A stretch of DNA of 64,000 bases from Alphaproteobacteria bacterium (lineage in GTDB: Bacteria > Pseudomonadota > Alphaproteobacteria > JAGOMX01), in NCBI GenBank assembly GCA_017993335.1, contig JAGOMX010000001.1, positions 4,863-68,862 of the forward strand. The letters run 5' to 3'. The translations under genes were made by a program, and so were the position numbers. The notes beneath the pieces are model-generated. The model was not told the origin of the DNA. It saw nothing but the letters and a program-made list of their open reading frames with translations, and did not search any database. This document shows positions 4,720-44,670 of this stretch, piece after piece (positions within the stretch are counted from its first letter, which is position 1; each line of letters opens with the position of its first letter).

Positions 4720-5095
4720 TATGCTCCTGTGGATAACTGGCTTAAGAAAATGTATAACTGACCGCCTTGAACTTATTTTCCCTTATTCATATTTTTACCC
4801 CTCTCTTTTCGATAGGTTATCCACAACTTTTAACATGTGGATAAAAGATGAATCATTTTTTTTATGCGTAAAATATAAATTATTTATACACAACCCATTT
4901 GTTTCCGAAACTGGCTTTTAAATTGCTTTTTAGGGGATTTCTTAATGAATTAATTGATTTATCTACAGCTGTGGATAAAATTGTGATTATTCAAATAGAC
5001 TTGCTCTGCCCTTGTGAATTAGCTATATCAACAGGTACTACTACTATAACTATCTTTTTATATATATATAATAATAGATATAAGGCTTGGGATAA
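4720..5095. other. candidate chromosomal replication origin (oriC/Cori) with four DnaA boxes
   Basis: Perfect TTATCCACA/TGTGGATAA boxes at 4728..4736, 4817..4825, 4836..4844 and 4970..4978. AT-rich tract tatatatatataataatagatat at ~5058..5080. Lies immediately upstream of hemE, the conserved alphaproteobacterial origin linkage. Confidence 0.55.
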
Positions 5096-6130
5096 ATGTC
5101 TGACCAACCGATTTTAAGAGTTTTAAATGGCGAGAGATTAAAAAAACCTCCGTGTTGGTTTATGCGTCAAGCTGGAAGATACTTACCTGAGTATCGAAAA
5201 ACACGTAGCCAGTTTAAATATTTTAAGGATTTCCTTTTTTCAACTCCGGATATTGTTGATGTAACTTTACAACCGTTAAGACGTTTTGATTTAGATGCGG
5301 CTATAATCTTTTCCGATATCCTCGTCGTTCCAATGATTTTAGGTGAAGATGTGGATGTTGTAGAAAGCAAAGGACCTCAACTTTCCAAAATTAATACACC
5401 TGAAGACATTCAGAGACTTTTCTTAAAAGGACATTTTGAAAAGTGTTTACCTATTTATGAAGCGATAAACAAAGTACGATCTCAATTGGAAAAAAATAAG
5501 TCTCTCATCGGCTTTGCTGGCGGCCCATGGACAGTAGCATCTTATATGATCGAAGGGCAAACTAGCAAAACCTTTGCGAAAACAAAAAATTTCGGGTACC
5601 AGTGGCCAGAAGCCTTCCAGAATTTATTAAATATAATCAGTGATATAACAGCAGATCATTTAATCAATCAGATAGATGCAGGTGCAGATCTCATCAAGAT
5701 TTTTGATAGCTGGGCAGGATCTATACCCTATAACCGACAAAATGAATGGCTCGTACAACCTCATAAAAGGCTCGTGGAGCGTGTAAATCTCTCTAAACCA
5801 CACATCCCTATCATTTCTTTTAATAAGGGCTTAGAAACCTCTTATAACACTTATATAGAAAATGTACCCGTTAAAGGTGTGGCAATGGGATCTCCAACGA
5901 ATATAGAATGGGCAGCAAAGAATATTTCTTCACATGTAGCCTTACAGGGTGCCATGGATCCACAATTATTAGTCGTTGGTGGAAAATCAATGATATGTGA
6001 TATTGAAAAGCACTTAATTACTTTTAAAGACAGACCTTATATTTTTAATTTAGGCCACGGTATCGTGCCGGAAACCCCCTTTGAAAATGTTAAAATAGCC
6101 TTAGATACAATAGATAGGATGTGTGCGTGA
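5096..6130 (+). CDS. hemE: uroporphyrinogen decarboxylase
   Basis: 344 aa. N-terminal PPCWFMRQAGRYLPEYR motif typical of HemE. Confidence 0.9.
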   Translation: MSDQPILRVLNGERLKKPPCWFMRQAGRYLPEYRKTRSQFKYFKDFLFSTPDIVDVTLQPLRRFDLDAAIIFSDILVVPMILGEDVDVVESKGPQLSKINTPEDIQRLFLKGHFEKCLPIYEAINKVRSQLEKNKSLIGFAGGPWTVASYMIEGQTSKTFAKTKNFGYQWPEAFQNLLNIISDITADHLINQIDAGADLIKIFDSWAGSIPYNRQNEWLVQPHKRLVERVNLSKPHIPIISFNKGLETSYNTYIENVPVKGVAMGSPTNIEWAAKNISSHVALQGAMDPQLLVVGGKSMICDIEKHLITFKDRPYIFNLGHGIVPETPFENVKIALDTIDRMCA

Positions 6131-28673: not shown

Positions 28674-30980
28674 TTATGCTGCTGTAGAGGCTGCGCCACG
28701 ATTTAACTCTTTTTTCCTTTTTTGTGCTTCGACAACAGACAAGGCTGTCATGTTCACAATTCTTCGAACTGTAGCCGACGGCGTCAATACGTGAGCTGGT
28801 TTATCTAACCCTAATATAATCGGCCCGATGGAATGCCCGCCCATAGTTGACTTGACTAAATTCAGGGCGATATTCGCAGCATCTATATTCGGCATAATGA
28901 GCAAATTCGCCATGCCTTGCAAGGTTGAGTTTGGAAATATTTTTTCGCGAATGGCTGGATCTATAGCTGCATCTGCCTGCATTTCGCCATCAATCTCGAG
29001 ATCAGGTGCCATTTCTCGAATATACTGTAGAGCTTTTTTCATTTTTACAGAAGAGTCACTATCCACAGTTCCAAAGTTAGAATGAGACAAAAGTGCAATC
29101 TTTGGTTCGATCCCAAAATCACGCATTTTTTCTGCGGCAAGCAGTGTGTTTTCTGCTATTTCTTCGGCGGTAGGATTTGCATTCACATAAGCATCACTTA
29201 AGAAAAACGTACCCTTATCTGTGATGAGAACTGACATGGAGGCGGCAGCTTGTGCCTTTTTACATAAGCCTATAATTGGCTTTACATTCTCCAGATGCAC
29301 CGGAAATTGGCCAATTGGTCCAGCAATCATAGCATCGGCTTCTTGTCGATGAACCATCAATGCGGCTATGACCGTTGTGTTGGTGCGTACAATGGTTCTG
29401 GCATATTCAGGAGATACACCATTTCGTCGCATTTGCTTGTGGTAGGTTAATGTGTAGGCCTTGTAACGCGGATCATCTTGTGGATCCACCAGGACAAAGT
29501 CTTCATCCAATTTTAATCGTAACCCTAATTTAGCAATACGATTGAGAACCACATCTTGCCTACCGATAAGAATGGGATGGGCCAATTTTTCATCAACCAC
29601 CACCTGTACCGCGCGCAGAACTTTTTCATCCTCTCCTTCCGCATAGACAACCCGTTTGGGATTTTCCATGGCCCTTATAAAAATGGGTTTCATCACCAAG
29701 ACAGAGCGGAAAACAAATTCGGATAATTTTTGCCTATAGGCGACAAAATCAGTTATGGGTCGAGTGGCAACACCTGTGTCCATGGCTGCTTTTGCTACGG
29801 CTTGAGGGATTTCAATAATCAGTCTTGGATCAAAAGGTTTTGGAATAATGTATTCAGGACCAAACTGTAATTCTTTGCCATTATAAGCGCTAGCCACCAC
29901 ATCGGAAGGTTCGGCCTGCGCCAAATTACAGATCGCCTGAACACAAGCCATCATCATTTCCTTGTTGATGCATGTGGCACCCACATCCAGGGCGCCGCGG
30001 AATATATAAGGAAAGCATAGGACGTTATTGACTTGATTGGGATGATCGGATCTTCCAGTGGCAACAATTGCATCGGGTCTGGCTTGTTTTGCAACAATTG
30101 GGTCTATTTCTGGATTCGGATTCGCCAGAGCCAGTATAATGGGTCTGTCGGCCATTTTTTTGACCATTTCAGCAGTAAGAACATTGGCTGCGGATACCCC
30201 TAAAAATAGGTCTGCGCCATCTATTGCATCATTCAATGTTCGATGGGTCGTCTTTATACAATAACGAGCTTTATATTTATCTAAAGTGCCTTCACGACCC
30301 TCATAGATCACCCCGTTTAAATCCACCATAATAATGTTTTCTTTTTGCAAGCCCAACGCAACCAGAAGGTCAACACAAGCAATAGCCGCCGCACCCGCAC
30401 CAGAACAGACAAGCTTAACCTGTTGAATCTCTTTGCCCACAAGTTTTAAACCATTGAGCATGGCGGCCGCTGTTATAATGGCTGTCCCATGTTGATCGTC
30501 GTGAAAAACAGGGATTTTTAACCTTTCTTTTAAGCGCTCCTCTACATAAAAGCATTCAGGTGCCTTAATATCTTCTAGATTTATAGCGCCAAAAGTTGGT
30601 TCAAGACTGGCAATAATATCTACAAGCTTTTCAGGGTTTTCTTCATTAATTTCAATATCAAATACGTCTATGTTCGCAAACTTCTTAAAAAGAACGGCTT
30701 TTCCTTCCATAACAGGTTTAGCTGCCAAGGGACCGATAGACCCTAGTCCTAACACAGCGGTTCCATTGGTAATAACACCAACTAAATTACCCCGTGAGGT
30801 TAAATTTATGGCCTGGGTCTCATCCTTTGTTATTTCTTCGCAAGCAGCCGCAACCCCTGGAGAATAGGCCAGCGCCAGGTCTCGTTGGGTTGCAAGTGGC
30901 TTTGTGGCTGTAATCGCCAGCTTACCCGGAGTAGGGTATCGGTGATAATCCAAAGCGCTTTCATAGAGCTGGCTGACCAT
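28674..30980 (-). CDS. maeB: NADP-dependent malic enzyme (malic enzyme domain fused to phosphotransacetylase-like domain)
   Basis: 768 aa. Malic enzyme N-terminus with VCSGAGAAAIA NAD(P) fold, plus a PTA-like C-terminal half. Confidence 0.9.
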   Translation of the reverse strand: MVSQLYESALDYHRYPTPGKLAITATKPLATQRDLALAYSPGVAAACEEITKDETQAINLTSRGNLVGVITNGTAVLGLGSIGPLAAKPVMEGKAVLFKKFANIDVFDIEINEENPEKLVDIIASLEPTFGAINLEDIKAPECFYVEERLKERLKIPVFHDDQHGTAIITAAAMLNGLKLVGKEIQQVKLVCSGAGAAAIACVDLLVALGLQKENIIMVDLNGVIYEGREGTLDKYKARYCIKTTHRTLNDAIDGADLFLGVSAANVLTAEMVKKMADRPIILALANPNPEIDPIVAKQARPDAIVATGRSDHPNQVNNVLCFPYIFRGALDVGATCINKEMMMACVQAICNLAQAEPSDVVASAYNGKELQFGPEYIIPKPFDPRLIIEIPQAVAKAAMDTGVATRPITDFVAYRQKLSEFVFRSVLVMKPIFIRAMENPKRVVYAEGEDEKVLRAVQVVVDEKLAHPILIGRQDVVLNRIAKLGLRLKLDEDFVLVDPQDDPRYKAYTLTYHKQMRRNGVSPEYARTIVRTNTTVIAALMVHRQEADAMIAGPIGQFPVHLENVKPIIGLCKKAQAAASMSVLITDKGTFFLSDAYVNANPTAEEIAENTLLAAEKMRDFGIEPKIALLSHSNFGTVDSDSSVKMKKALQYIREMAPDLEIDGEMQADAAIDPAIREKIFPNSTLQGMANLLIMPNIDAANIALNLVKSTMGGHSIGPIILGLDKPAHVLTPSATVRRIVNMTALSVVEAQKRKKELNRGAASTAA

Positions 30981-31153
30981 AGTAAATTCCAGTTTAAAAT
31001 TAAGTGTATTGAATTATAGCACGTTGCATCTGAACCTGCATAAAATTTATTGACAGATCAAGAGGCTTGTCAAAAAAAAATCGATTCTTTACAAGACGTG
31101 TAAAAAATATCATAACTTAGACTTCCGTTTAAAATAAGGGATTTTTAAGTAGA

Positions 31154-31597
31154 ATGCCTACATTTATAAACTTAAGTTGGACACAAATCGAAAACGATGC
31201 TCATGCCTTGGCGGATAAGTTAATCCAGTCTCAATTAAAATGGGATGGAATTATAGCTATAGCAAGAGGAGGACTCGTCCCGGCAACTATATTATCTCAT
31301 AGATTGAACATCCATTGGCTAGATACACTGTGCTTAAGTAGCTACAATGATGTAACAAAAAAACAAGGATCTTTGCGTGTCCTTAAAGAATTCAAAAGCG
31401 ATAGCGACAAATTATTGGTTGTTGATGATTTGGTGGATACAGGGGAAACTTTTTTAAAAGTTAGAGACATGCTGCCAAAAGCACATTTTTCCTGTCTTTA
31501 TGCTAAAAAACCCGGCATATCGACCGTTGACACATACACGTTAAAAGTCCCTTCCGATAGTTGGCTGGTGTTCCCCTGGGAGGAAAGTGACACATAG
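31154..31597 (+). CDS. gpt: xanthine-guanine phosphoribosyltransferase
   Basis: Collinear with E. coli Gpt (IIAIARGGLVPA, LVVDDLVDTGET PRPP motif, KAHF). Confidence 0.85.
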   Translation: MPTFINLSWTQIENDAHALADKLIQSQLKWDGIIAIARGGLVPATILSHRLNIHWLDTLCLSSYNDVTKKQGSLRVLKEFKSDSDKLLVVDDLVDTGETFLKVRDMLPKAHFSCLYAKKPGISTVDTYTLKVPSDSWLVFPWEESDT

Positions 31598-31600
31598 AGA

Positions 31601-31737
31601 CCATTTCAAAACGTCTTTTTTGGGTGATTTCGTCGTCAAGGTTCCGCTTCCGGTGCTCACGTACGAAGAGGTACGCTGCGCTCCGGTTCTCACCTTTCCT
31701 ATAAATCCCTCCAAAAAAGACGTTTTGAAATGGCCTC
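31601..31737. repeat. 137-bp MITE-like element copy 1 with perfect 23-bp terminal inverted repeats
   Basis: ccatttcaaaacgtcttttttgg ... ccaaaaaagacgttttgaaatgg. Second copy at 41966..42102, ~95% identical, same orientation. Confidence 0.75.
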
Positions 31738-31861
31738 ACATAAAATAAAAAAAATCAGTTTTGCAGCCATCTTCACGAAATATTTATATTTTTATGTTGA
31801 GATATTTAACTAGGCGTATAGGATTGTGATAACGTATTTAAGGTAAGGATGGATCCCACAC

Positions 31862-33163
31862 ATGCAGCATAAATTAACTTTATCTTTTATTGGTTTTGCC
31901 TTAATCCCGCTTTTAATTGTTTTGCAATGGGCGGTTACGTATATAGGCAGGGATCAAAACCAAAATCTGTCTCAAGATACAATTCAGCTGGTTGAGAAAC
32001 AAATTTTTCTACAAACTCAGGAACGGGTTCGGGATTTAGAATCTATCTCGCTATCTGAAGTTTTTTGGGAAAGCAAAAAGAATGATTTGGATTCGATGCG
32101 CTTGGATTTCAAGAAATATAGCGACGCCTTAATGTTCACACACCCAGACTATCGTTTGATCATGCTCGTTAACGAAAAAGGTCGTGTTTTAACGATTAAT
32201 AGTAAGGATAGCAAGGGGAATCCGCTGGACACAAATACACTGCTTGGCAAAAGTTTTGATCGCTCCAGCTGGTTCCAAAAAGCCTTGTCGACGAAGGGTG
32301 TTTTTATTGAGTCTCCTCGGGAATTAGAATACATAAATAGTCTATATGCACCGGCAAAATCCAAGTATTTACCTGTTGTTAAGTCCATACGCAATGAAAT
32401 GGATGAGGTAAAAGGCGTTTGGGTTATCTTCGTTGAAGCTTCATTTTTAACGGATATCCTTAATGTCGCAGCTTTGCACATCGAAACGCCTTACAAATTA
32501 GGCGTTTATGATGGGTTAGGTAATCCTTTAGCCGAAATAGATACATTCAAAAAAGAGCCCCTTGAAAATATAGATGTACAAAAAAACGATTTTAATTTCT
32601 TAGGACAAAACTGGACGGTACAAGCCTATATCCAGGAAACGCCTTTGGTGGATTATCTGTCTTTATATCTATGGCCGGCAGTAGCCGCCTTTGGCCTTAT
32701 ACTGTTATATGCATTTGTAGCGGCCAGACGTTTTGTTATTCCGCTTCAGCGCCTGGTTTGTGCAGCCGAATTGATTCTAAAAGGCAACTTTAGTTTTGGT
32801 GTTCCTTATGCAGAGAGAACAGACGAATATGGTCGTTTATCGAGAGCTCTCTCGGATCTACAAAAATTGCGCTTATGGAAAAAGAATGAAAAAGAAAAGC
32901 CTTTAAATACATCCACGGCAGTTCAGGAAACAGCACAAAAATTGGAAGATACAACGCAACTGATTCATAGCTTGTCGGCCCAAGCCAATATGTTGGCTTT
33001 GAATGCCTCTATGGAAGCCGTTAAATCTCATCATTTAGATGAAGTGGCAGAAAAAGCCAATGATCTTGCACAAAAAACTTCTTATAGCAGTCAAGAGCTA
33101 TTGAAAAAATTAAATGAAATAAAGGTCGTTTGTGATGAAATTCAAAACCAGGAAAAGTCATAA
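31862..33163 (+). CDS. MCP-like membrane sensor with HAMP and truncated methyl-accepting signalling domain
   Basis: Two TM segments flanking a ~230-aa periplasmic region and a HAMP-like linker. C-terminal QANMLALNASMEAVKS resembles the MCP signalling-domain core, but the domain is only ~90 aa. Confidence 0.6.
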   Translation: MQHKLTLSFIGFALIPLLIVLQWAVTYIGRDQNQNLSQDTIQLVEKQIFLQTQERVRDLESISLSEVFWESKKNDLDSMRLDFKKYSDALMFTHPDYRLIMLVNEKGRVLTINSKDSKGNPLDTNTLLGKSFDRSSWFQKALSTKGVFIESPRELEYINSLYAPAKSKYLPVVKSIRNEMDEVKGVWVIFVEASFLTDILNVAALHIETPYKLGVYDGLGNPLAEIDTFKKEPLENIDVQKNDFNFLGQNWTVQAYIQETPLVDYLSLYLWPAVAAFGLILLYAFVAARRFVIPLQRLVCAAELILKGNFSFGVPYAERTDEYGRLSRALSDLQKLRLWKKNEKEKPLNTSTAVQETAQKLEDTTQLIHSLSAQANMLALNASMEAVKSHHLDEVAEKANDLAQKTSYSSQELLKKLNEIKVVCDEIQNQEKS

Positions 33164-35119
33164 ACGCAACAATTTTGCATTGATGGCACAAATGATTGTG
33201 CTTAAAGACATCAAAACAGCCCCTAACGCTGGTGATAAGTGAATACCAATAGACCAGAAAACACCGGCCGCCAAAGGAATGGCTATGGCATTATAGCCCG
33301 TCGCCCAGATTAAGTTTTCTTGCATTTTTTTATAGCTGTTTTTGGCTAGCTTTAGGATGGTAACAACATCTTGTGGGTTGTTTTTTATTAGGATAATATC
33401 GGCGCTTTCCATGGCAATATCTGTGCCTGCCCCTATAGCAATGCCTAAGTCTGCTTGTGCAAGAGCAGGAGCATCATTCACGCCGTCCCCCACCATGGCG
33501 ACAAATCCTTTTTGTTCTTGTAGATCGCGAATGCGTATGGCTTTGGCCCCTGGAAGGACTTCGGCAACAAATTCATTGATCCCGATTTCTTCTGCAACGG
33601 CACGGGCAACAAATTTATTATCCCCGGTTAGCATAACGCAGTGTATCCCTTGTTTTTGTAAATCCGCGATGGCTTGTTTGGATTCTTCTCGAATACGATC
33701 CGACAGCGCAATGGCACCGATTACCTCTTGATTCAAGAGGAGGAAAACAATCGTTTTTCCCTGATTAAAAATAGAATTAATTTGCGTAATGTATTTATCT
33801 AAACCATTTTCTTGTAAGTATCCGGGGCTGACAATTTTAATGTCGTGACCATCTATTTTGCCCATAGCGCCAATGCCTGGCATGGTTGTGAACTCTTTTA
33901 CTTCAACTCGTTCTGATGTTTCTTGTGCGATGCTTTTTGCAAGAGGGTGTTCGGCATATTGTTCCAGGGAGGCTGCATAGGTTAATACCTGTTCTTTTGT
34001 ATAAGCCTCATTCAGGGAGATAATATCAGATACGCGGAAGTCTCCCTTTGTTAGGGTTCCTGTTTTGTCAAAGACAACCACATTAATTTGACGGGCTTTT
34101 TCAAAGGCGGAGCGATCTCGAATTAAAAAACCGTTTCGTGCCGCAATACTGGTGCTGACAGATACAACGAGTGGAATCGCCAAACCCAGGGCATGCGGGC
34201 AGGTAATAATCATAACGGTTACGGCTCTTTCCACGGCAAAAGAAAAGTTACTCGAAAACCATAGCCAGGCAATAAACGTCAGGATACCTGCCGTAATGGC
34301 TAAGAGGGTTAACCATTTCGCGGCACGATTGGCCAGGTCTTGTGTGAAAGATTTACTGGCTTGAGCTTGCCGAACAAGACGGATAACATTGGGAAGAAAA
34401 CCATTTTCTCCTACATGGGTAGCTTGAATGGTCAGGCTTCCTTCGTAGTTAATTGAGCCGCCCCAGACCGATTTTCCAATTTTTTTCTCTACCGGCGTAG
34501 ATTCTCCACTGAGCATGGATTCGTTTACAAAGGATTGGCCTTCAATGACCAGACCATCGGCAGGAATGCTTTCCCCTGGCTTAATCAAGAGGCGATCACC
34601 TTTTTGAATTTCATGTAAGAGTTTAAGATACATTTGGCCATCAGGTGCAATAAAGCGTGCCGTACGTGGTAATAAAGAGGCCAATTCATTTAAGGCACTT
34701 CCCGCTCCAAGTATCGACTTCATCTCAATCCAATGCCCTAAAAGCATGATATCAATAAGGGTTACAATTTCTAAAAAAAAGGATTCCCCTTCAACACCCA
34801 ATAAAACAGCAACGCTGTAGATGTAGGCTGTCGTGATCGCTAGGCCAATCAGTGTCATCATGCCGGGTTGTTTTTTCATCGTTTCGCTGTAGGTACCGGA
34901 TAAAAAAGGCCAGCCGCCATAAAAAAAGATGATTGAAGAGAGAATGAACACGCTGGAGGAAATAGCTATATTTACACTAAATAATTCATTGTATGGGGTT
35001 AAATCTAATAAATTAGGCAAGGCATGAATCAAAAAAATCCATAACGTTAAAAACATACAGATAAAGAATCTATCCTTGTATTTTTTAATACTATGGGCGT
35101 GATGATGGGAATGATCCAT
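33158..35119 (-). CDS. P1B-type heavy-metal ATPase, CopB-like (CPH motif, His-rich N-terminus)
   Basis: MDHSHHHAHS N-terminus. TM6 motif CPH (ITCPHALG). DKTGTLT phosphorylation site. GDGVNDAPAL. No CxxC metal-binding domain. Confidence 0.85.
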   Translation of the reverse strand: MDHSHHHAHSIKKYKDRFFICMFLTLWIFLIHALPNLLDLTPYNELFSVNIAISSSVFILSSIIFFYGGWPFLSGTYSETMKKQPGMMTLIGLAITTAYIYSVAVLLGVEGESFFLEIVTLIDIMLLGHWIEMKSILGAGSALNELASLLPRTARFIAPDGQMYLKLLHEIQKGDRLLIKPGESIPADGLVIEGQSFVNESMLSGESTPVEKKIGKSVWGGSINYEGSLTIQATHVGENGFLPNVIRLVRQAQASKSFTQDLANRAAKWLTLLAITAGILTFIAWLWFSSNFSFAVERAVTVMIITCPHALGLAIPLVVSVSTSIAARNGFLIRDRSAFEKARQINVVVFDKTGTLTKGDFRVSDIISLNEAYTKEQVLTYAASLEQYAEHPLAKSIAQETSERVEVKEFTTMPGIGAMGKIDGHDIKIVSPGYLQENGLDKYITQINSIFNQGKTIVFLLLNQEVIGAIALSDRIREESKQAIADLQKQGIHCVMLTGDNKFVARAVAEEIGINEFVAEVLPGAKAIRIRDLQEQKGFVAMVGDGVNDAPALAQADLGIAIGAGTDIAMESADIILIKNNPQDVVTILKLAKNSYKKMQENLIWATGYNAIAIPLAAGVFWSIGIHLSPALGAVLMSLSTIICAINAKLLRL

Positions 35120-35238
35120 AATTTATGCTTTCTTTATTATTTTTTATAAGGATAGCAATTTATTTCCTTCTTGTAAGAAGAAAATGAAAAATCGTTTCGA
35201 GCGAAGTAAAATATTTTTAAGGAACGTGAACAAAATCG

Positions 35239-35266
35239 TTGACGTGGTGAAATAGGTGACTATTAT
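35239..35266 (+). promoter_or_regulatory. sigma70-like promoter for tRNA-Leu (TTGACG-16bp-TATTAT)
   Basis: -35 TTGACG at 35239, -10 TATTAT at 35261, 9-10 nt before the mature tRNA 5' end. Confidence 0.4.
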
Positions 35267-35275
35267 GCACCTATT

Positions 35276-35362
35276 GCCCCTGTGGCGGAACTGGTAGACG
35301 CGGCAGACTCAAAATCTGTTGATTTTACGATCGTGGGAGTTCGAGTCTCCCCGGGGGCACCA
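35276..35362 (+). tRNA. tRNA-Leu (anticodon CAA)
   Basis: 87-nt cloverleaf. 7-bp acceptor stem GCCCCTG/CGGGGGC, anticodon loop CUCAAAA, long variable arm, GTTCGAGT T-loop, encoded CCA. Confidence 0.9.
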
Positions 35363-35386
35363 CCTTATTTTTCCGATAACGATTTT

Positions 35387-36565
35387 CTAACAAACTTCAA
35401 ACAAGCCAGCTGCGCCTTGTCCTCCACCGATGCACATGGTTGCCACCACATATTTAACACCTCTGCGTTTGCCTTCTATTAAGGCGTGACCAACGATACG
35501 AGAGCCTGTAACACCGTAAGGGTGGCCGACGGCAATAGACCCACCATTTACATTCAGAAGTTCATCCGGGATTCCTAGTTTATCGCGGCAATAGATGACT
35601 TGTACGGCAAAGGCTTCATTTAATTCCCATAAGCCGATATCTTTCATTTGCAGACCAGCATTTTTCAATAGCTTTGGTATAGCGAAAACAGGCCCTATGC
35701 CCATTTCATCGGGTTCACAACCAGCGACGGCAAAGCCCCGAAATATTCCTAAAGGCTCAATCCCTCTTTGTTCGGCAAGTTTTGAATTCATAATGACGCA
35801 GGCAGAAGAGCCATCAGAAAATTGGCTAGCATTTCCTGCAGAAATCACCCCACCAGGGATGGCCGGTTTAATCTTGGATACACCTTCTAATGTCGTATCT
35901 GCACGTACGCCTTCATCAGAAGATATGGTCACTTCTTTCATAAGGATTTCCCCGGTTTCTTTATCGGTGACCCCCATAATTGTGGTGACGGGAACGATTT
36001 CCGCATCAAATTTTCCCGCAGCTTGTGCGGCTGCCGTGCGGAGTTGGCTTCTGACGCCATACTCATCCATAACATCCCGTGAGATATTATAGCGTTTGGC
36101 CACTTGTTCGGCGGTTTGTAGCATGGTCCAATAGATCTCGGGCTTATGTTCACTTAAGTATGGATCCATAACCATATGGCGGTTTACCGTATTTTGTACG
36201 CATGAAATACTTTCGACGCCACCTGCAACCATTACGGGGACTTTTTCTGCTATGATTCTGCCGCTGGCAATGGCGATAGCTTGAAGACCTGAGGAACAAA
36301 AGCGATTGACGGTCATCCCGGCTGTGGTAATGGGAAGATTGGCACGTAAGGCAACTTGACGGGCTATGTTTTCTCCCGTAGAGCCTTCTGGATAGGCACA
36401 TCCCATAACCACATCATCTATTTCAGCAGGATCCACACCAGATCGCTTAACAGCCTCAGCGACGGCATAACTTCCAAGGGTTGCACCATAAGTCATATTA
36501 AAGGAACCCTTCCAGGATTTTCCTAATCCCGTACGGGCTGTTGAAACGATAACTGCATCTACCAT
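35387..36565 (-). CDS. acetyl-CoA C-acyltransferase / 3-ketoacyl-CoA thiolase
   Basis: 392 aa. Thiolase motifs [34 protein letters not shown]. Second thiolase paralog in the window. Confidence 0.9.
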
Positions 36566-36619
36566 GATTTATTCCCTCACATATATCTTTTATTTTATCT
36601 TTAAAAAGTTAATAACCCG

Positions 36620-39600
36620 TTATTTTTCCATCATATTTATAATGGCGTCCCAATTTTCTGGGATGCCTTCGCTGATGAGTTTCTGGCATCTGGTTACGAA
36701 AATATTGGCAACAGGATCTTCTTTACGAATGGCTATGCAGGCTTCAAAGATTTTTTTGGCCTTTGCAATGTCGCCTTTTGTATAAAGTGTAAGGGCTTTC
36801 TCAAAGGAATCAATGTAAGCATCATTCGTTTGTTTTTCCTCATAGGAAGTGGAGGGAAGAACTTCATAGATTGTCATCGCTTTCGTTTTACCTTTAACGC
36901 GTATTTTATCTATTTTTCGAATACTAAATCGGGATGCATCCATAAGTTTATCGTAAGTGGCATCGCTGATTAATAGTTGTGTACCATACATTTTGTTTAA
37001 TCCCTCAATACGGGAAGCGCCATTGACCATATCGCTGACGACGTTGGCTTCGATGCGTTCTTCTTCTCCCAGGGCACAAAGCATGGCTGGTCCTGTATTA
37101 ACGCCAACACCCATCAGGATGCTTGCAAATCCTGCATCGTTAATTTCTTGGTTAAATAAGGGTATAGCTTGTAGCATTTCTACCGCTGCTTGTACGGCAT
37201 CTTGGGATGGGCCGGGGAATAGGGCAAGAATACCATCGCCCAGAACACGATTAATAAATCCATTGTTTTGCCGAATGATAGGAGCCATGTATTTGAGGTA
37301 AGTATTGAGTATGTATGTTAGTTGCTCTGGCTCGATAGCTTCAGATATGGATGTAAAGTCTCGTAGATCTGCAAAAATCGCCGACATTTCAGATTTTGCG
37401 CTATCCCCTATTTGGACTTCTTCAATATTTTTTCTCCCTAAAAGCTGTAAGAACTTTTTCGGAACGAATCTCTCGGTAGCATGAAACAATTGTTGAGTAT
37501 GTTCTAGATAGCGTGCATTTTCCAGTGAAATGGCTATTTGAGTGGAAAGAGTCGAGAGAATTTGGACCCTGTCTGGAGTAAAGGCTTGTGTGGTTAGATT
37601 ATTCTCCAGGTATAAAATAGCCGTAACTTTTTTGTCGCGCAATATAGGAATGCATAGAGCGGATTTAGGTTTGTTTTTTTGTACGTACTCTAGTTTTGCA
37701 TATTTTTCATCGGCACTGATGTCTGAGATAACTTCGGGGCTGCCGGATCTTATGGTGTAGGTTATTAAACCTTCCGGCACAGAGGTGCTTTTTTGAAGAG
37801 GTTCGATAATCTGGCGTACATCGAATGTATCTTTATTCATTTCGGCAATTGTTTCTACCGTCCATACATCACGGCGAAGTCCAATAAAAATAGCTTTTTC
37901 GGCGCCTGCAGACTCGGTAACGACTTTTAATATTTTTGGCAGCAGCTTATCCAGTATGATTTCGCTGGAGATGGCCTGGTTGGCTTTTATCAACGACATT
38001 AAGTCTAATTCGCCCGTCATCATGGTGGTAGAAAAACCGACTGGTGTTCGAGGGGTATTCGAAAGTTTTTGTTTCTGCAGTAAAGTATGGCCATATTTTT
38101 CTTGAAGACGCTTAACTTTTAAATTGCATCCCCACTGTTCAAAAAAATAGATGGCTTCAGAGATGTAGTAGATGGCGGCCCCATGGTACCCCATTTCTAA
38201 ATTCATCTCGCCTAATCTTTCATTCGCTATCGCCGTCCATCGGGTATAAGCATTTTTCTGAGAGACCTGAATAGCGTTGTTATATAAATCAAAAGCTTCC
38301 AGAGTCTTTTTTTGAATACGCGCAAGTTCTGCTTGTCCAAGAAGATAAAGATGTAAAAAATTATCTGGATTGTGATCGGAGAATTTTTTCAGCAGAGAAA
38401 GATATTTATTAATTTCCTTTATAGACTCTGTTTTCTCCTCATCGGAGGCGCTTGGATACAATTGAGCCAAGATCATGATGGATAGCGCGTAATAAATTTG
38501 ATTGCCGATGGATGGATTGTTATAGGTCCTGCTCTGCATGGCCTGTTGAGCGGCATGTTTTGCGAGTTTAAATTCTTCCTCAAAATAATAATTAAATACG
38601 GAAAATAGCCCAAAATCATTTTGTGTCGCCGGAAGAGATTTGCTGACATCGTCTAATGAAAGAGTTTTTTCATCCAGCATGTGTTGTGCACAAATATAAA
38701 CATGCTGAGCCGCATCTATAATATTTTGCATGCGCAAACGATTGCCGATTCGGACATATTCGTTCGCCTTGTTTTTTAGATCTGCCAGTGGGAGATCGGA
38801 AAAGTTACAAAACTCTAAATTTGCATTTATAGACCAGGGAAGATAAGTAAAAGAACCTGTTTCGACCATAGTCTGAATACTTGGCTCAATATCTTGAATC
38901 ATATCCTTTATTTTAGAAAAATAAGCCGCTGTTCGCGTCGATCGGGAGGTGAAAAGAGCTTTTATGGATGCGGGAAAATGCCTGGTTTTTAAGACAGACA
39001 TGCCTCCTTGCCATATGGTCTCGTAACTTTTTAAACTTCCTGTCACCTGGTATTGAATGCGAGCTCTTGAATCTATTAATTGATAGAGAATGTTATCATC
39101 GACGCCATTCTTTTCAAAATAGACCGCGACTCGCATGGTTGCACAATTGGGGAATGTGATGTTACCTCTAAATATGGAGGCAGAGGCCCCTAAAAACAAG
39201 ATGTCCGCCAATACGGCTGTTCGTTCTATATCTGCAGGTTCATTGGTAATTCGCTTAAAAGAAAGAATTTTATTGACGAATGTGCTACCACTTTTGTATC
39301 TCAGGAAGTATTTCATAAACTCATAATAAAATTCTAACATGGATGGATTAAGGGAGATGTCGATGCCAATGATTTTTGTGCCCTTAACTTCCATGCTGAC
39401 AGTTTCTTGGTAATTGCCTAAAGCATTATTGATTTTCATTAAGGATCGATAAACATAGGCGCCTTGTAGGCCCCGTAGTTTTTTTTCTAACAATTTTTGC
39501 CCTTGAGTACGGGCATCTTGATAATCACCTTGTAGATATAAGCACTCTACATATTCTAAATTTAAATGAAAATGTAGTTTGTGGTTTTTATCCCAATCCA

Positions 39601-41896
39601 TATGAAGGAGCCAAAGCAAGCCAAGGGAAAGATAATCTTTCGCGGCTTGATAGGCGTTAGAACCGATAGCTTGCCGACCGGCACGCAAGGCTAACTCCGC
39701 CAGTTTTATTTTTTCTTCCTCATTATCAATAAGACCTTTGCATCGGTTAAAATGATCGAGGACTTCAAAGACATCTTCGCTGGAGCTAATTTCATCTATT
39801 TTGCTGAGTAGGAGTCTTCCGGCTTTTAAGTGGAGATACGTTTTTTCATTATCTGAAATTGTTTGATACGTCGCTTGTTGGATACGGTCGTGAATGAATT
39901 TATGTCTTAATCCTCCATCTATACGTTGGATGAGGCCTTCTTTTATGGCGGGAGATAGCTTATTAATTAAGTCTATCTCTTCAATTTTTTCTATATTACA
40001 TAAGGTCTCGCAATCGAAAGACATGCCCAAGCATGAACCTAGTTGTAAAGTTTTTTGGCTTTCGCTGGGGAGTTTATTTATTTTTTCCAACATCAGGTCG
40101 ATGACGTTGTTGGATCCGGCCATGAGTTGTATTTTTTCAAGATCCCACTCCCATGCTTTATTTTGCAGAGAAAACTTTATGTAATTCTGATGAAAGCATT
40201 CTTTCAGAAACTCTCTTGTAAAAAATGGGTTTCCGTCGGTTTTTTTATAGAGGACTTTTGCGAGGGGTTGGATTAATTTGGCATCGGCTTTAAAGGTATC
40301 TGTCAACAATCTTTCAGTATCTTTAAGGCCTAAAGCACCTAATTCGATATTTTCAATGTCCATCCCAGATTTTTTTAATTTCTCTAATAGCTTTATTAGA
40401 GGGTGGCTTTCATCCACTTCATTATTACGAAAAGCACCGATAAATAAAATGGCTTCTGCATCTTGTGTGCTTAAGATAATATCCAACAAGCGTAAGGAGC
40501 CCTGATCTATCCACTGCAAGTCGTCGATAAAAATGACTAAGGGTTCATCCCGATTGGCGATACAGCTTATAAACTTTTGAAAGAAAAATAAAAATCTATT
40601 TTGTGCTTGTTCTGGGGATAGTTTTTCTATTTCAGGTTGCTTGCCCAAGACCAGTTCAATTTCAGGAAAAAAATCAATCATGACTTGGCCAGAAGAGCCT
40701 AAGGCTAACAAAAGCCTATTCTTTCTCTCCTCAAGCCTTTCTTCTGATTCGGTCAGCCAGTTTTGAATTAATTTGGAAAAAGCAGTTGTAAACGCTGTAT
40801 AAGGCGTTGTGCGGAGTAATTGGTCAAATTTCCCACTAATATAATAACCATTTTCTTGAGTTATGGGTTTTTGTAATTCATTCACTAAGGTTGTTTTACC
40901 TATACCCGAGTACCCGCCTATCATGACACATTCTAGGTTGCCGTCTTTAACTCTATCAAAAGCGGACATGAGTTGTTTGACTTCATTCTCCCTGCCATAC
41001 ATTTCGGAGGAAATTGTTAGCTTGTTGAGTAATTCCCTGGAACCTAAATTAAAATCTTCAATTTTGTGATTATTTAGCCAGCCTTGATGACACAATTCTA
41101 AGTCATACAATAACCCTTCTGCACTTTGATATCGATCGTCTGCGGATTTAGCCATTAATTTGGCGACTATTTTTGATAACATCTGTGGTACCAAATTATA
41201 GGCTTTAGAAGCTGATTTTGGTTCTATCGCTAAATGAAAATGGACGTATTCAAGGGGGTCGTTACTGGTAAAGGGTAGGGACCCAGTTAGCATCTCATAA
41301 AATGTTATTCCTAGAGAATAATAATCGCTACGATAATCAATAGGCCGATTCATTCTCCCTGTTTGTTCAGGAGACATATAAGGCAAACTTCCTTCTAATT
41401 TTTGCACAGAAACAACTTCTTGATTTTCAACGGTTAGTTGGCTGGCAAGGCTTAAATCCAGGAGTTGAATGCCTAACGTGTTCGGGTGGATGAGCAAATT
41501 ATCAGGTTTGATGTCTTTATGAATAATGTTGTGAGCATGCAGCTGCGATAAACAATTTATTATATTCTTGGCAATCGTTAAAAAGAGATCTGGGGTCAGG
41601 GGTTTGCCGGATAAATATTTTTTTAAAGATATGCCGCCGGTATCCTCATAAATGAGGAAGTGTGAATCGGCTTCTTCTATTAATTTTTCGCAATGGACAA
41701 GGCCGGAAAATTTAATTTCATGATTGATTTGATATTCATGGCGAAAAGCTGTAAGCAAGGCCTGCGAAGGGCGTTTGGATTTAATCGCCTTTATAATGAC
41801 GTTTCCATAATCTACAGGACCATGAGCCTTGAAAACAACGATATCATTGTTCTCATAAAGAATCCCATTGTTTTTATAGCTTGCTAAACGGTCCAT
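36620..41896 (-). CDS. giant multidomain signalling protein: Ser/Thr kinase - AAA/STAND NTPase - TPR-like array - GAF - class III adenylate/guanylate cyclase
   Basis: 1758 aa. N-terminal Hanks kinase (VIIKAIK, HNIIHKDIKPDNLLI, SPE). Walker A GGYSGIGKTT near aa 325. Long helical repeat region. GAF-like region near aa 1250-1400. C-terminal cyclase with FADLRDFTSISE and a terminal TPR. Confidence 0.85.
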   Translation of the reverse strand: MDRLASYKNNGILYENNDIVVFKAHGPVDYGNVIIKAIKSKRPSQALLTAFRHEYQINHEIKFSGLVHCEKLIEEADSHFLIYEDTGGISLKKYLSGKPLTPDLFLTIAKNIINCLSQLHAHNIIHKDIKPDNLLIHPNTLGIQLLDLSLASQLTVENQEVVSVQKLEGSLPYMSPEQTGRMNRPIDYRSDYYSLGITFYEMLTGSLPFTSNDPLEYVHFHLAIEPKSASKAYNLVPQMLSKIVAKLMAKSADDRYQSAEGLLYDLELCHQGWLNNHKIEDFNLGSRELLNKLTISSEMYGRENEVKQLMSAFDRVKDGNLECVMIGGYSGIGKTTLVNELQKPITQENGYYISGKFDQLLRTTPYTAFTTAFSKLIQNWLTESEERLEERKNRLLLALGSSGQVMIDFFPEIELVLGKQPEIEKLSPEQAQNRFLFFFQKFISCIANRDEPLVIFIDDLQWIDQGSLRLLDIILSTQDAEAILFIGAFRNNEVDESHPLIKLLEKLKKSGMDIENIELGALGLKDTERLLTDTFKADAKLIQPLAKVLYKKTDGNPFFTREFLKECFHQNYIKFSLQNKAWEWDLEKIQLMAGSNNVIDLMLEKINKLPSESQKTLQLGSCLGMSFDCETLCNIEKIEEIDLINKLSPAIKEGLIQRIDGGLRHKFIHDRIQQATYQTISDNEKTYLHLKAGRLLLSKIDEISSSEDVFEVLDHFNRCKGLIDNEEEKIKLAELALRAGRQAIGSNAYQAAKDYLSLGLLWLLHMDWDKNHKLHFHLNLEYVECLYLQGDYQDARTQGQKLLEKKLRGLQGAYVYRSLMKINNALGNYQETVSMEVKGTKIIGIDISLNPSMLEFYYEFMKYFLRYKSGSTFVNKILSFKRITNEPADIERTAVLADILFLGASASIFRGNITFPNCATMRVAVYFEKNGVDDNILYQLIDSRARIQYQVTGSLKSYETIWQGGMSVLKTRHFPASIKALFTSRSTRTAAYFSKIKDMIQDIEPSIQTMVETGSFTYLPWSINANLEFCNFSDLPLADLKNKANEYVRIGNRLRMQNIIDAAQHVYICAQHMLDEKTLSLDDVSKSLPATQNDFGLFSVFNYYFEEEFKLAKHAAQQAMQSRTYNNPSIGNQIYYALSIMILAQLYPSASDEEKTESIKEINKYLSLLKKFSDHNPDNFLHLYLLGQAELARIQKKTLEAFDLYNNAIQVSQKNAYTRWTAIANERLGEMNLEMGYHGAAIYYISEAIYFFEQWGCNLKVKRLQEKYGHTLLQKQKLSNTPRTPVGFSTTMMTGELDLMSLIKANQAISSEIILDKLLPKILKVVTESAGAEKAIFIGLRRDVWTVETIAEMNKDTFDVRQIIEPLQKSTSVPEGLITYTIRSGSPEVISDISADEKYAKLEYVQKNKPKSALCIPILRDKKVTAILYLENNLTTQAFTPDRVQILSTLSTQIAISLENARYLEHTQQLFHATERFVPKKFLQLLGRKNIEEVQIGDSAKSEMSAIFADLRDFTSISEAIEPEQLTYILNTYLKYMAPIIRQNNGFINRVLGDGILALFPGPSQDAVQAAVEMLQAIPLFNQEINDAGFASILMGVGVNTGPAMLCALGEEERIEANVVSDMVNGASRIEGLNKMYGTQLLISDATYDKLMDASRFSIRKIDKIRVKGKTKAMTIYEVLPSTSYEEKQTNDAYIDSFEKALTLYTKGDIAKAKKIFEACIAIRKEDPVANIFVTRCQKLISEGIPENWDAIINMMEK

Positions 41897-41965
41897 CTGT
41901 TAACTAAACCAGAAAATCATACTTTAATAGTATAAGTCGCATGCCTTAACGTATGATTAAGAGAA

Positions 41966-42102
41966 CCATTTCAAAACGTCTTTTTTGGGTGATTTCGTCG
42001 TCAAGGTTCCGCTTCCGGTGCTCACGTACAAAGAGGTACGCTGCGCTCCGGTTCTCACCTTTCCTATAAATCCCTCCAAAAAAGCCAGTTTTGAAACGGC
42101 CT
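41966..42102. repeat. 137-bp MITE-like element copy 2 (degenerate right TIR)
   Basis: Matches 31601..31737 with ~6 substitutions. Lies between the divergent giant kinase gene and the crotonase-family gene. Confidence 0.75.
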
Positions 42103-42171
42103 CATTAACTTTATTTATTTTTATAAATTAAGTTGTTATTAGGTTTTTTTTACTAAAATATTTGTATAGAA

Positions 42172-43602
42172 ATGAATAAGTTAGAATATGTCATGGATAA
42201 TTACAGTGTCGACATACATCAAGTATATAAGGCGTTGTTAGCTTCAGGATTGGATAGAGAAAGTGTAGAGTCCTGGAAACGAGCAGAGCCTTTCTATACG
42301 TCAGATTATGAAGCGGATGTAAAACAAGCGAGCGCCTTTTTTAAACTTACCCAACACTTGTTAGAAAAATTACCAGAAAAGCCGAGTCGAAATCCGGAAC
42401 AAATTTCTGCCGCCAAGCTTTTGCTGGGTTCAGGAAGAGCCGCCAGAGAAACTTTTTTAGAAAAGCATGTGGTGGAATTATATTCGCGCATAACCCATGA
42501 CTATTCTCGCTCTGTGGTTGTTTATGACTTGCCTTATGAGGCCGAAAAGTTAGTGCCTGGGTTAACGCCAACGAGAGATATCATTGCTCAAGAAGCCACA
42601 AAAATGACAAAGCATAAAGAGGGGCATGAGTTTGACCAGGGTATATTTTTTGCCCACGTGTTGGCTCATGAAAAGTCAGGATTACATCTTTGTCATACCA
42701 TGTTATTACCGGGTGTTGAATCAGAAGATAAGTTAAAATATTTAAAAAAACATGGGAATATAGATCTGGGAACAGTCTCCGTTGAAACAAGAGAGGATCT
42801 TTCCTGGGTAACCATGAAGAATGATAAATTTCTGAATGCGGAAGACAATACAACGTTGGATCCTATGGATGAGGCGATTGATTTAGCCATTATGGACCCA
42901 AACACACAAATGGCTGTCTTGCGGGGAGATAGAGTGAGTGATCCAAAATATAACAATCGCCGGGTCTTTTGTTCAGGTATAAATTTAAGTGACCTATATC
43001 ATGGCAAAATACCTTATCTGTGGTACATGAAGCGAGACTTAGGTTTTTTACATAAAATCTTTCGGGGTCTTTCGGTGCCGGGAAAACCAGCGGATGATGT
43101 TCTGGGTATGACCCGAGAAAAGTTATGGATTTCACAGGTAGATTCTTTTGCTATTGGGAGTGGTTGTCAATTTTTGTTACCAACCGATTATATTGTGGCG
43201 GGTCACGATGCCTATCTTACTTTGCCCGCTTGTAAAGAGGGAATTGTCCCTGGTGTTGCAGAGTTACGGTTGCATCGCTTTGTTGGGGATCGCATGGCTC
43301 GTCAGCTTATTTTCTTGGCGCGAAGATTGGATTGTGCAACCCCTGAAGGACAGATGATTTGTGATGAAGTCGTCGATCCTGCATATATAGAAAAGCACGT
43401 CATTGAGGCTTATAAACGAATCACAAGCTCAGGCATGGTTGCTGTTTATGCAAATCGTCGAGCTTTTCGCGTTTCGTTGGAGCCTTTAAATCTCTTTCGC
43501 GAGTATATGTCTGTCTACGCCCGGGAACAAGCCCAGTGCCTATTTTCCCAAGAGCTTATAGACAATCTGGAAATGCAGAAAATCGCAACGAAAAGCAAAT
43601 AG
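42172..43602 (+). CDS. enoyl-CoA hydratase/isomerase (crotonase) superfamily protein with ~230-aa N-terminal extension, DpgC-like architecture
   Basis: C-terminal half has crotonase-like motifs (RVFCSGINL, SFAIGSGCQFLL). Length and N-terminal helical extension resemble cofactor-independent CoA-thioester dioxygenases/hydratases. The family call is tentative. Confidence 0.55.
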   Translation: MNKLEYVMDNYSVDIHQVYKALLASGLDRESVESWKRAEPFYTSDYEADVKQASAFFKLTQHLLEKLPEKPSRNPEQISAAKLLLGSGRAARETFLEKHVVELYSRITHDYSRSVVVYDLPYEAEKLVPGLTPTRDIIAQEATKMTKHKEGHEFDQGIFFAHVLAHEKSGLHLCHTMLLPGVESEDKLKYLKKHGNIDLGTVSVETREDLSWVTMKNDKFLNAEDNTTLDPMDEAIDLAIMDPNTQMAVLRGDRVSDPKYNNRRVFCSGINLSDLYHGKIPYLWYMKRDLGFLHKIFRGLSVPGKPADDVLGMTREKLWISQVDSFAIGSGCQFLLPTDYIVAGHDAYLTLPACKEGIVPGVAELRLHRFVGDRMARQLIFLARRLDCATPEGQMICDEVVDPAYIEKHVIEAYKRITSSGMVAVYANRRAFRVSLEPLNLFREYMSVYAREQAQCLFSQELIDNLEMQKIATKSK

Positions 43603-43611
43603 CTGGTTTTT

Positions 43612-44670
43612 TTAAACCTTAACGATAAGCTTGCCTTTGTTTTTGCCGTTGAGCAGACCAATGTAGGCTTCTGGTGTTTTTTCTAGGCCTTCACGTACGT
43701 CCTCGATGACTTTAATTTTACCGGATTCTATCAGAGATGACAGACGTTGGATGACTTCATCGTATTGATCCATGTAGTCAATAACGATAAAACTTTGGAA
43801 CTTTATGCGTTTTGGGATTTTGGCAAAATAGATTAATGCCAACAGATCTGGCCCCATGGGAATCGGATCGCTATTTTGTTGGGTCCAGGCCATCGAGCCG
43901 CAAAGGGCTACCCGGGAAAAATCATTCATGTGCTCCAAAATTTTGTAGAATACATCGCCGCCCACATTGTCATAATAAACATCGATTTTTTGTGGACATG
44001 CTTTTTTTAAATCCTCAGAAAAACTTGCTTTTTTGTAGTTTACACACGCATCAAATCCGAGTCCATCTACAGCGAGTTGACACTTTTCATCGCTTCCGAC
44101 AACACCCACAACGCGGCACCCAAACGTTTTGGCTAATTGACCCACAATAGATCCTACTGCCCCTGTCGCGGCTGTTACAACAACAGTTTCGCCGGCTTTA
44201 GGTTGGCCCACATACACCAGTCCACCGTAAGCCGTAAGGCCTGTCATGCCCAACACGCTTAAATAGTAAGAAGATTTTAAGGTAGGTGATATTTTTTTTA
44301 CCTTATGGATGTCCCAAGGCAGCCCTTGTATTAAATTGCCTTTAGAAACGGCGTATTTTTGCCACCCTGTATAGGCCAAAACCAGCTCACCTTTTTGCAA
44401 GTTAGGGTTCTTGGATTCTTCAACAATACAAACAGATGAACTTGCAATGGCGTCACTCGCCTTTGTATTTTGTATATCCGCATAGGCGGCTTGTGGCCTG
44501 AGAATTTTTTTTGTATAGGGATCTAAACTAATATAGATGGCTTTTAAAAGCACTTCCCCGTCATGGATTTCAGGGATTTCTTTTTCGATCAAACGAAAGT
44601 CAGACGCCGTCACTTCGCCTGTTTTGAGCTCATCTAAAATGATAATTTGATTAGACTTTTCCATAGGCAT
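43612..44670 (-). CDS. NADP-dependent oxidoreductase, medium-chain dehydrogenase/reductase family (zinc-independent, enone reductase-like)
   Basis: AATGAVGSIVGQLAK Rossmann motif and overall MDR layout. 352 aa. Confidence 0.8.
   Translation of the reverse strand: MPMEKSNQIIILDELKTGEVTASDFRLIEKEIPEIHDGEVLLKAIYISLDPYTKKILRPQAAYADIQNTKASDAIASSSVCIVEESKNPNLQKGELVLAYTGWQKYAVSKGNLIQGLPWDIHKVKKISPTLKSSYYLSVLGMTGLTAYGGLVYVGQPKAGETVVVTAATGAVGSIVGQLAKTFGCRVVGVVGSDEKCQLAVDGLGFDACVNYKKASFSEDLKKACPQKIDVYYDNVGGDVFYKILEHMNDFSRVALCGSMAWTQQNSDPIPMGPDLLALIYFAKIPKRIKFQSFIVIDYMDQYDEVIQRLSSLIESGKIKVIEDVREGLEKTPEAYIGLLNGKNKGKLIVKV

Follow-up and report, generated by a model that had tools for sequence, protein, structure and literature searches.

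The gpt and kinase-cyclase loci of an alphaproteobacterial genome

We analysed a 64,000-nt stretch of DNA, called the window throughout, from a metagenome-assembled genome (MAG) of an Alphaproteobacteria bacterium (GCA_017993335.1, JAGOMX010000001.1). The window holds two copies of a short palindromic element with the features of a MITE (miniature inverted-repeat transposable element), and the nature of this element is the subject of what follows. Copy 1 is co-oriented with gpt, the gene for xanthine-guanine phosphoribosyltransferase, and abuts its stop codon. Copy 2 is placed between the divergent starts of a kinase-cyclase gene on the minus strand and a crotonase/DpgC-like gene on the plus strand. 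The 10.2 kb between the copies contain a dCache/partial-MCP gene, a P1B Cu-ATPase gene, tRNA-Leu(CAA), a thiolase gene and the gene for the kinase-AAA16-TPR-GAF-cyclase (1758 aa), essentially the gene content listed in a preliminary description made from the letters of the window. Coordinates of the element and its borders are collected in Table 1.

The two copies have the same orientation and are identical at 138 of 143 aligned positions (96.5%, five differences). Their starts lie 10,364-10,365 bp apart, and a repeat search of the window returned them as one two-copy direct family with inverted arms. The preliminary description had reported two same-orientation copies of about 95% identity and 137 bp; the pair is as it said, and its extent is slightly longer (141 and 143 bp). 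The perfect 23-bp terminal inverted repeats it gave for copy 1 were also found, perfect across those 23 nt, within a full repeat of 27 nt (GAGRCCATTTCAAAACGTCTTTTTTGG; end sequence of the element, GAGRCCATTTCAAAACG). Consensus ends of both copies read GAGRCC...GGCCTC. With up to three mismatches allowed, the 23-mer CCATTTCAAAACGTCTTTTTTGG occurs at three places in the window, namely 31601 (+), 31733 (-) and 41966 (+), and shuffled sequences predict zero matches by chance. Each strand of the element folds as a single end-to-end hairpin, at -64.7 and -70.4 kcal/mol, with z-scores of -9.5 and -9.9 relative to shuffles. We found the element to be non-coding: three of its six reading frames are open from end to end, and the longest open reading frames (ORFs) across the copies, at most 78 aa, are frame artefacts.

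Table 1 Features of the two element copies and their insertion sites in the window.
Feature	Position	Strand	Remarks
gpt (xanthine-guanine phosphoribosyltransferase)	31154..31597	+	Pfam PF00156; product identical to MBP6984987.1
Left target-site duplication, copy 1	31592..31596		ACATA, overlapping the final gpt codons; same 5-mer at 31738-31742
MITE copy 1	31597..31737	+	141 bp, GAGACC...GGCCTC; first base completes the gpt stop TAG
Left terminal inverted repeat, copy 1	31597..31623	+	27 nt, 26/27 complementary to 31711-31737
GC-rich asymmetric core hairpin, copy 1	31645..31691	+	47 nt, CCGCTTCCGGTGCTCACGTAC-GAAGAG-GTACGCTGCGCTCCGGTTCT
Right terminal inverted repeat, copy 1	31711..31737	-	27 nt
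Right target-site duplication, copy 1	31738..31742		ACATA
Left target-site duplication, copy 2	41956..41960		ATTAA; same 5-mer at 42104-42108
MITE copy 2	41961..42103	+	143 bp, GAGAACC...GGCCTC; right terminal repeat degraded
Core hairpin, copy 2	42010..42056	+	one G-to-A difference from copy 1, in the apical loop region
Right target-site duplication, copy 2	42104..42108		ATTAA

Each copy has its own target duplication and an empty counterpart

Target-site duplications, which the preliminary description had named as a trace worth seeking, border both copies. They are 5 bp long and different at the two sites (ACATA and ATTAA). We retrieved relatives through the neighbouring proteins and obtained contigs without the element from Logan assemblies: L012 and L011, which encode the 97% identical Gpt, for the copy 1 site (SRR14092379 and SRR36615402) and L025 for the copy 2 site (SRR14092378). 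At the first site, L012 and L011 read ...GACGCATAAAATAAAAAAATCA..., with a single GCATA that differs from ACATA by one single-nucleotide polymorphism, where the window reads ...GACACATA, the element and then ACATAAAATAAAAAAAATCA.... BLAST split L012 into two matches to the window, 30841-31596 and 31739-32570 (94.4-94.7% identity), whose ends overlap in the query; the dCache gene of L012 directly follows gpt. At the second site, the two matches of L025, to 40606-41960 and 42104-43701 (95.3-95.6% identity), overlap by exactly 5 nt of the query. This overlap is the one ATTAA of its empty site, GTATGATTAA joined to ATTTATTT. L025 carries the N-terminal 430 aa of the kinase-cyclase at 99% identity together with the divergent crotonase-like gene. 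Both orthologous sites are therefore polymorphic for presence and absence of the element, between flanks that are 93-96% identical.

The insertion at gpt has left a further mark. Copy 1 had been described as starting 3 nt beyond the gpt stop; it begins in fact with the G of that stop, TAG at 31595-31597, to which the target contributes TA. In relatives that lack the element the stop here is TAA (GACGCATAAAAT), so the Gpt protein and its length are unchanged. Both targets are AT-rich, one being the gpt stop codon and the other the spacer between the kinase-cyclase and crotonase-like genes. Since each copy has its own 5-bp duplication and relatives have empty sites, we conclude that the copies arose by two independent MITE insertions. 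Judged from these alignments, both insertions are later than the split from relatives with ~94-95% DNA identity. Few relatives of Gpt are on record, which marks the lineage as very poorly sampled. The window's protein is identical to MBP6984987.1, which comes from an 'Alphaproteobacteria bacterium' MAG; the nearest others reach 97, 74, 69, 66 and 59% identity, and only four relatives above 60%, all from Logan assemblies, were found among 5.8 billion proteins.

We considered an assembly artefact or chance similarity, given that the window comes from a MAG and that the same strain's short-read contigs (SRR11088487) break within the element, with an end at 31624 and a start at 42077. Breaks of this kind are expected for a multi-copy repeat that exceeds the assembly k-mer in length. 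Independent contigs, from three other samples, confirm the adjacency of the flanks on both sides of both copies, no chance matches are expected, and homologous elements are present in dozens of finished replicons. The probability of an artefact is accordingly negligible.

Copy 2 with its duplication adds 148 bp to a 127-bp divergent promoter region and stands 68 nt upstream of the crotonase/DpgC-like start codon. Its insertion could alter expression of either the kinase-cyclase or the crotonase/DpgC-like gene.

The segment between the copies is ordinary chromosome

The preliminary description proposed that the two copies flank a composite, recombination-prone accessory island. A composite transposon or recombination-bounded island, in which the direct copies mobilise or delimit the 10.2 kb, would be in keeping with their shared orientation, with the tRNA gene inside the segment and with the differing content after gpt in distant relatives (lepA-pheTS in L013, a UbiA-family gene in L015). 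However, a composite would show one duplication pair at its outer ends only, whereas we found a matching pair at each copy (ACATA/ACATA and ATTAA/ATTAA). The borders are also intact in relatives that lack either element. Synteny from gpt to crotonase had been named as a further check on the island; relatives without the elements keep both the gpt/dCache and the kinase-cyclase/crotonase-like adjacency, a comparison that extends to the borders only, the relatives' contigs being short. Segment GC (0.37-0.44) equals that of the flanks, a Pfam scan found no integrase or transposase domains inside the segment, and tRNA-Leu is internal, away from the borders. An island of this kind is thus very improbable, and the proposal falls. 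The 10.2 kb are ordinary chromosome and not cargo of the repeats, and the variation after gpt in deeper relatives is unrelated to them. The 'MITE-like' label of the same description proved apt: the element is short, encodes no transposase, and has 27-nt terminal repeats, 5-bp duplications and precise empty sites.

The surroundings are of the same character. The genes upstream of gpt, for acetyl-CoA carboxylase subunits, mgtE and malic enzyme, are ordinary chromosomal ones, and the scanned genes downstream are housekeeping genes (hslUV, ccm, hscAB, iscS); Pfam and NCBIfam domain scans of the window ORFs covered 28.7-58.6 kb. Homologous recombination between the ~141-bp direct copies is physically possible, and we saw no evidence of it. 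Within the segment, the dCache protein (433 aa, 31862-33163) has a partial MCP signalling domain, with both of its domains below the Pfam cut-offs, and the 3' end of its gene overlaps the convergent Cu-ATPase gene (33158-35119) by 6 nt. The protein resembles a chemoreceptor that has been truncated, and its gene is kept in the close relative L012.

A broad family of palindromes shares the core of the element

We searched the plasmid collection with the 141-mer by BLAST and found that only its centre (nt 49-95) matched, at 87-91% identity, in 32 alphaproteobacterial chromids and megaplasmids. The matches occur at up to five places per record and come from Ensifer, Rhizobium, Shinella, Agrobacterium/Allorhizobium, Phyllobacterium, Aminobacter, Bosea, Mesorhizobium, Sphingobium and Novosphingobium, so that Rhizobiaceae, Phyllobacteriaceae, Bosea and Sphingomonadaceae are all represented. 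Among 16 plasmid loci that we retrieved, 15 form an end-to-end palindrome of 120-160 nt with a minimum free energy of -53 to -104 kcal/mol. In the sixteenth, from Shinella sp. PSBB067 (L041), the palindrome has decayed and its left arm is partly missing. Members share a centre of TTTCTGCGCTTCCGGTGCTCACGTAC, a 4-7 nt loop and GTACGCTGCGCKCCGGTTCTCGAAA, flanked by inner arms of the form ...CCTGCAAAYGG... and ...CCATTTTCGSC..., while the outer arms are genus-specific.

The window copies follow this plan. They join the core CTGCGCTTCCGGTGCTCACGTAC-loop-GTACGCTGCGCKCCGGTTCTCG and TGCAAA/TTTTCG inner arms in one hairpin, and they align to the family from their termini (GAGACCATTTCAAAACG against GAGGCCCGCCTGCAAACGG), with an AT-shifted composition and ~20 extra nt per arm. 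A family profile built from alignments A5 and A6, the latter of 59 sequences, recovered copy 1 at E=2.4e-18 and copy 2 at E=3e-20 (nhmmer). By these sequence matches, the window element is shown to be an AT-shifted member of a broad alphaproteobacterial family of intergenic palindromes, 120-150 nt long. The exact core 17-mer also occurs in 49 IMG/VR contigs, in which the profile marks 57 places.

Conservation is distributed unevenly along the palindrome. In A6 the core columns are near-invariant and the arm columns covary with their partners: columns 26/188 hold CG in 27 sequences, UA in 15 and GC in 6, and columns 35/179 hold CG in 26, GC in 12 and AU in 6. The RNAalifold consensus of A6 has double changes in 14 of its 22 predicted pairs. 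Even the apical stem shows rare compensatory variants, from CGTAC/GTACG to CCTAC/GTAGG and to CGGAC/GTCCG. Many members with GG...CC ends are flanked by TA, and others have no obvious duplication. For the GC-rich members in spacers of gene transfer agent (GTA) clusters, we obtained no clean empty sites; cases of presence and absence are many, with flanks too diverged. The best candidate pair was an orthologous spacer of L072 (8380-8600) and L045 (8353-8475), of which one holds a full element and the other the left arm only, up to GGCCGGCC. We rejected it as an internal-deletion remnant.

String searches of the searchable literature with core and arm motifs found no description of the family; the one trace of it is a table on Thalassospira lucentensis, discussed below. 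As far as these searches reach, the family is apparently undescribed, named alphaproteobacterial repeats having been compared by description.

Copy number and mobilisation

The three open frames offered a way to look for further copies. Comparing their translations with 5.8 billion proteins yielded one more, P0121, an 89-aa ORF on a 65-kb NCBI contig that contains ...GHFKTGFFGGIYRKGENRSAAYLFVREHRERNLDDEITQKRRFEMAS... and is taken as a third copy of the element, visible solely as an ORF artefact. The remaining matches were to FG-GAP-like repeat proteins, and we discarded them as chance. A profile search (HMMER) of 1.84 billion representative proteins added a single diverged variant, P0129, at locus L091. 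There, a full copy and a partial one stand in tandem at 4999-5240 (GCA_031257795.1, 47% GC), in the spacer between a pseudouridine-synthase gene and bamA. The arms of this pair (TTCAAAATCAG..TTTTGGG) are like the window's terminal repeat, its core has an insertion, and it is annotated as an 85-aa ORF. A profile HMM found no further diverged copies in the window, L001 or L011-L015.

We also looked for an enzyme that could move the element. No transposase was found in the segment or among the other scanned ORFs of the window, and no matching element ends occur elsewhere in the window when the 23-mer is allowed up to three mismatches. Scanning species-representative genomes (185,579 species), JGI metagenomes and IMG/VR, collections that evidently lack the source genome, with the exact terminal 20-mer gave nine genome, six metagenome and two viral matches. 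All were 20-27 nt long and lacked the core, and we rejected them as chance. With neither a transposase nor matching ends in the window, we can only infer the mobilising enzyme. A DDE-type transposase that makes staggered 5-bp cuts, encoded at another place in the genome, would move the element in trans. Once inserted, copy 1 would give the gpt transcript a very stable hairpin at its 3' end, copy 2 would enlarge the divergent promoter region by its 148 bp, and the direct copies would offer a 141-bp substrate for homologous recombination.

The hairpin architecture with its conserved imperfect core, and the placement of both copies in one orientation on the strand that a positive GC skew suggests to be leading, could also point to a palindrome of the REP/RAYT or IS200/IS605 type (PATE), moved as single-stranded DNA by an HUH transposase. 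HUH elements of the IS200/IS605 type insert beside a fixed tetra- or pentanucleotide and are not known to duplicate the target. Here, however, two different 5-mers are duplicated, each of them single at its empty site, and the palindrome spans the whole element instead of lying subterminally. There is very little chance that the element moved in this way.

Four observations weigh against the reading as MITE insertions. We found no autonomous insertion sequence (IS) with matching ends, either in the window or in the genome, metagenome and viral collections. Documented copies number only three. Across the family the core is conserved and the outer arms vary by genus, the opposite of what recognition of termini by a transposase predicts. 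Finally, many GC-rich members are flanked by TA or by no obvious duplication, not by 5 bp. With duplications that differ in this way, the mechanism of transposition is only presumed and may not be the same in all subfamilies. Taking these points together with the empty sites, we hold it to be very likely that the window records two independent, recent insertions of a non-autonomous MITE that belongs to a broad alphaproteobacterial family, in an otherwise ordinary segment of chromosome.

Two more direct repeats with two copies each are present in the window, at 13665-13722/17419-17476 (58 nt, 91%) and 1448-1496/4577-4625 (49 nt, 96%). These may sit in paralogous genes.

Orientation within operons and the RNA question

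Family elements begin 0-50 nt after stop codons, and their orientation is strongly biased. On plasmids, the element is co-oriented with transcription in six of seven independent co-directional gene pairs. On GTA-bearing contigs, 41 of 42 element copies point the same way as the operon. Roughly 35 IMG/VR contigs are recognised as GTA clusters by a megatron equivalog (1675 bits), a distal tail protein of the Rcc01695 family, a tail protein of the TP901-1 type and a capsid protein of the HK97 type. The spacers occupied vary across these loci (L042-L090): some elements follow the capsid gene, and others precede or follow the major tail gene; examples are L079 8660-8787, L054 1043-1153 and L064 3096-3226. 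Outside GTA clusters, the short spacer between etfB and etfA holds a family member in Ensifer adhaerens (L026 1460-1585), Rhizobium sp. WSM1274 (L028 401-528) and Aminobacter sp. SR38 (L033 399-535), a position that is apparently orthologous and retained within the operon.

Small RNAs reported from Thalassospira lucentensis bear on whether such elements are transcribed. Putative 'miRNAs' were described there at two loci, with 5p reads of TTCGGTGCTCACGTACTTTTAG and 3p reads of TGCGCTCCGATGCGCGTGAACC (PMC6413936, Table 5), and these reads are the two arms of the family core hairpin. Judged from this match, the elements would seem to be transcribed, and the 'miRNAs' are probably fragments of the family hairpin. 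It is likewise plausible that copy 1, lying against the gpt stop, is transcribed as a structured RNA, as the preliminary description had raised.

These observations are the substance of a different reading, in which the element serves first of all as a structured RNA or a cis-acting signal in transcripts and is mobile only incidentally, its core being functional and its arms a carrier. Candidate roles are a stabiliser of the 3' untranslated region, a site of processing, or a signal for pausing or termination. The near-invariant core across orders, the covarying arms, the compensatory changes in the apical stem, the co-orientation, the starts just past stop codons and the Thalassospira reads from both core arms all speak in its favour. 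An analogy can be added from Caulobacter crescentus, whose GTA cluster contains terGTA, 150-bp GC-rich imperfect inverted repeats that are co-oriented with the cluster and were proven by experiment to terminate transcription unless GafZ acts (PMC11150451). GTA clusters are expressed by anti-termination. We rejected terGTA as a family member: primer sequences inside it contain neither core nor arm motifs, so it is a different repeat and the parallel is one of functional analogy only.

Several results run counter to this reading. Only two tRNAs reach the Rfam gathering score in the window, with nothing meaningful on the element at E<=10, and the 16 family loci gave no Rfam match at E<=0.1. Promoter- or terminator-like signals in or after the elements did not exceed shuffled expectation, and no T-tract follows the elements. 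We found no excess of wobble pairs on the transcribed strand (50 G-T against 58 A-C mismatches), and the reverse strand folds more stably in 17 of 18 elements. With no wobble asymmetry and a more stable opposite strand, the covariation does not point specifically to RNA selection on the transcribed strand; homogenisation of inverted repeats at the DNA level would produce arm covariation as well. Both window insertions are moreover dispensable, being absent in close relatives. We therefore consider it improbable that the element is first of all an RNA. On one reading of the strand difference, we infer that only the orientation with the weaker RNA hairpin would be tolerated inside operons.

Comparison with described repeats

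We compared the window element with bacterial MITEs such as Correia/NEMIS of Neisseria, RUP of S. pneumoniae, MITEAba12 and the QMITEs of Coxiella. It shares with them a length of 100-200 bp, a lack of coding capacity, terminal repeats, target duplication and a hairpin over its whole length, as well as intergenic placement often just past stop codons, insertion polymorphism between strains and ORFs that run through the element. It differs from IS630-linked MITEs in its variable, AT-rich 5-bp duplication where TA is typical, and from MITEs generally in that no partner IS was identified, copy number is apparently low and the centre is the most conserved part of the family. By its defining features the element is a MITE that behaves like the Correia, RUP and ERIC types, one whose partner IS was not found and whose genome-wide copy count is not firm.

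Other repeats of similar size resemble the family in part. The enterobacterial ERIC/IRU elements (127 bp) are likewise imperfect palindromes conserved across a class or order, found at transcribed intergenic sites in variable copy number and present or absent at orthologous sites. They differ in host class and, by description, are apparently unrelated in sequence, the property that defines ERIC membership; the near-absolute orientation bias inside operons is particular to the present family. Closer in host range are CIR1-4 of Caulobacter and Brucella, portrayed in PMC2229807, after Chen & Shapiro 2003, as ~110-bp intergenic repeats with two hairpin arms, a linker and a CcrM GANTC site in the terminal loop. 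According to the same summary they too are highly conserved in alphaproteobacteria and have TA termini in many copies. On that description, CIR1-4 differ from the window element, which forms one end-to-end hairpin and has GANTC in neither copy.

The Bru-RS1/2, RIME1/2 and Sinorhizobium Sm-repeats of Hyphomicrobiales, again compared by description, are also palindromic, intergenic and ~100-110 bp long. Bru-RS1 of Brucella is reported to be a hot spot for IS711, which targets YTAR (PMC3163539), and several members of the present family end in CTAG or TAGG. No Sinorhizobium meliloti plasmid was among the 32 records matched in our search, which covered plasmids only, the S. meliloti chromosome lying outside the sequences searched.

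Implications

Our analysis removes the block of dCache, Cu-ATPase, tRNA-Leu, thiolase and kinase-cyclase genes as a false lead for an island. What remains is a clean case of recent MITE activity, in an alphaproteobacterial lineage of which little has been sampled, with two filled sites, two empty sites and a rebuilt stop codon. Short-read assemblies fragment at both points because the repeat is inserted there.

The family to which the element belongs spans Rhizobiaceae and Sphingomonadaceae to Thalassospira and the present MAG, with a core that is ~90% conserved and has no Rfam entry. One further idea is that the 47-nt core is a functional nucleic-acid module, either a signal for pausing, termination or processing or a hairpin that binds protein. 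Such a module would be carried on lineage-specific MITE-like arms that make different target duplications (5 bp or TA-like), and kept in one orientation within operons, especially GTA clusters. We put this idea forward tentatively and think it rather doubtful. If the core is functional, it would bear on the punctuation of long GTA operons and of other operons, and on reports of bacterial 'miRNAs'. The core module would then be a mobile cis-regulatory element, absent from Rfam, that is distributed across several alphaproteobacterial orders.

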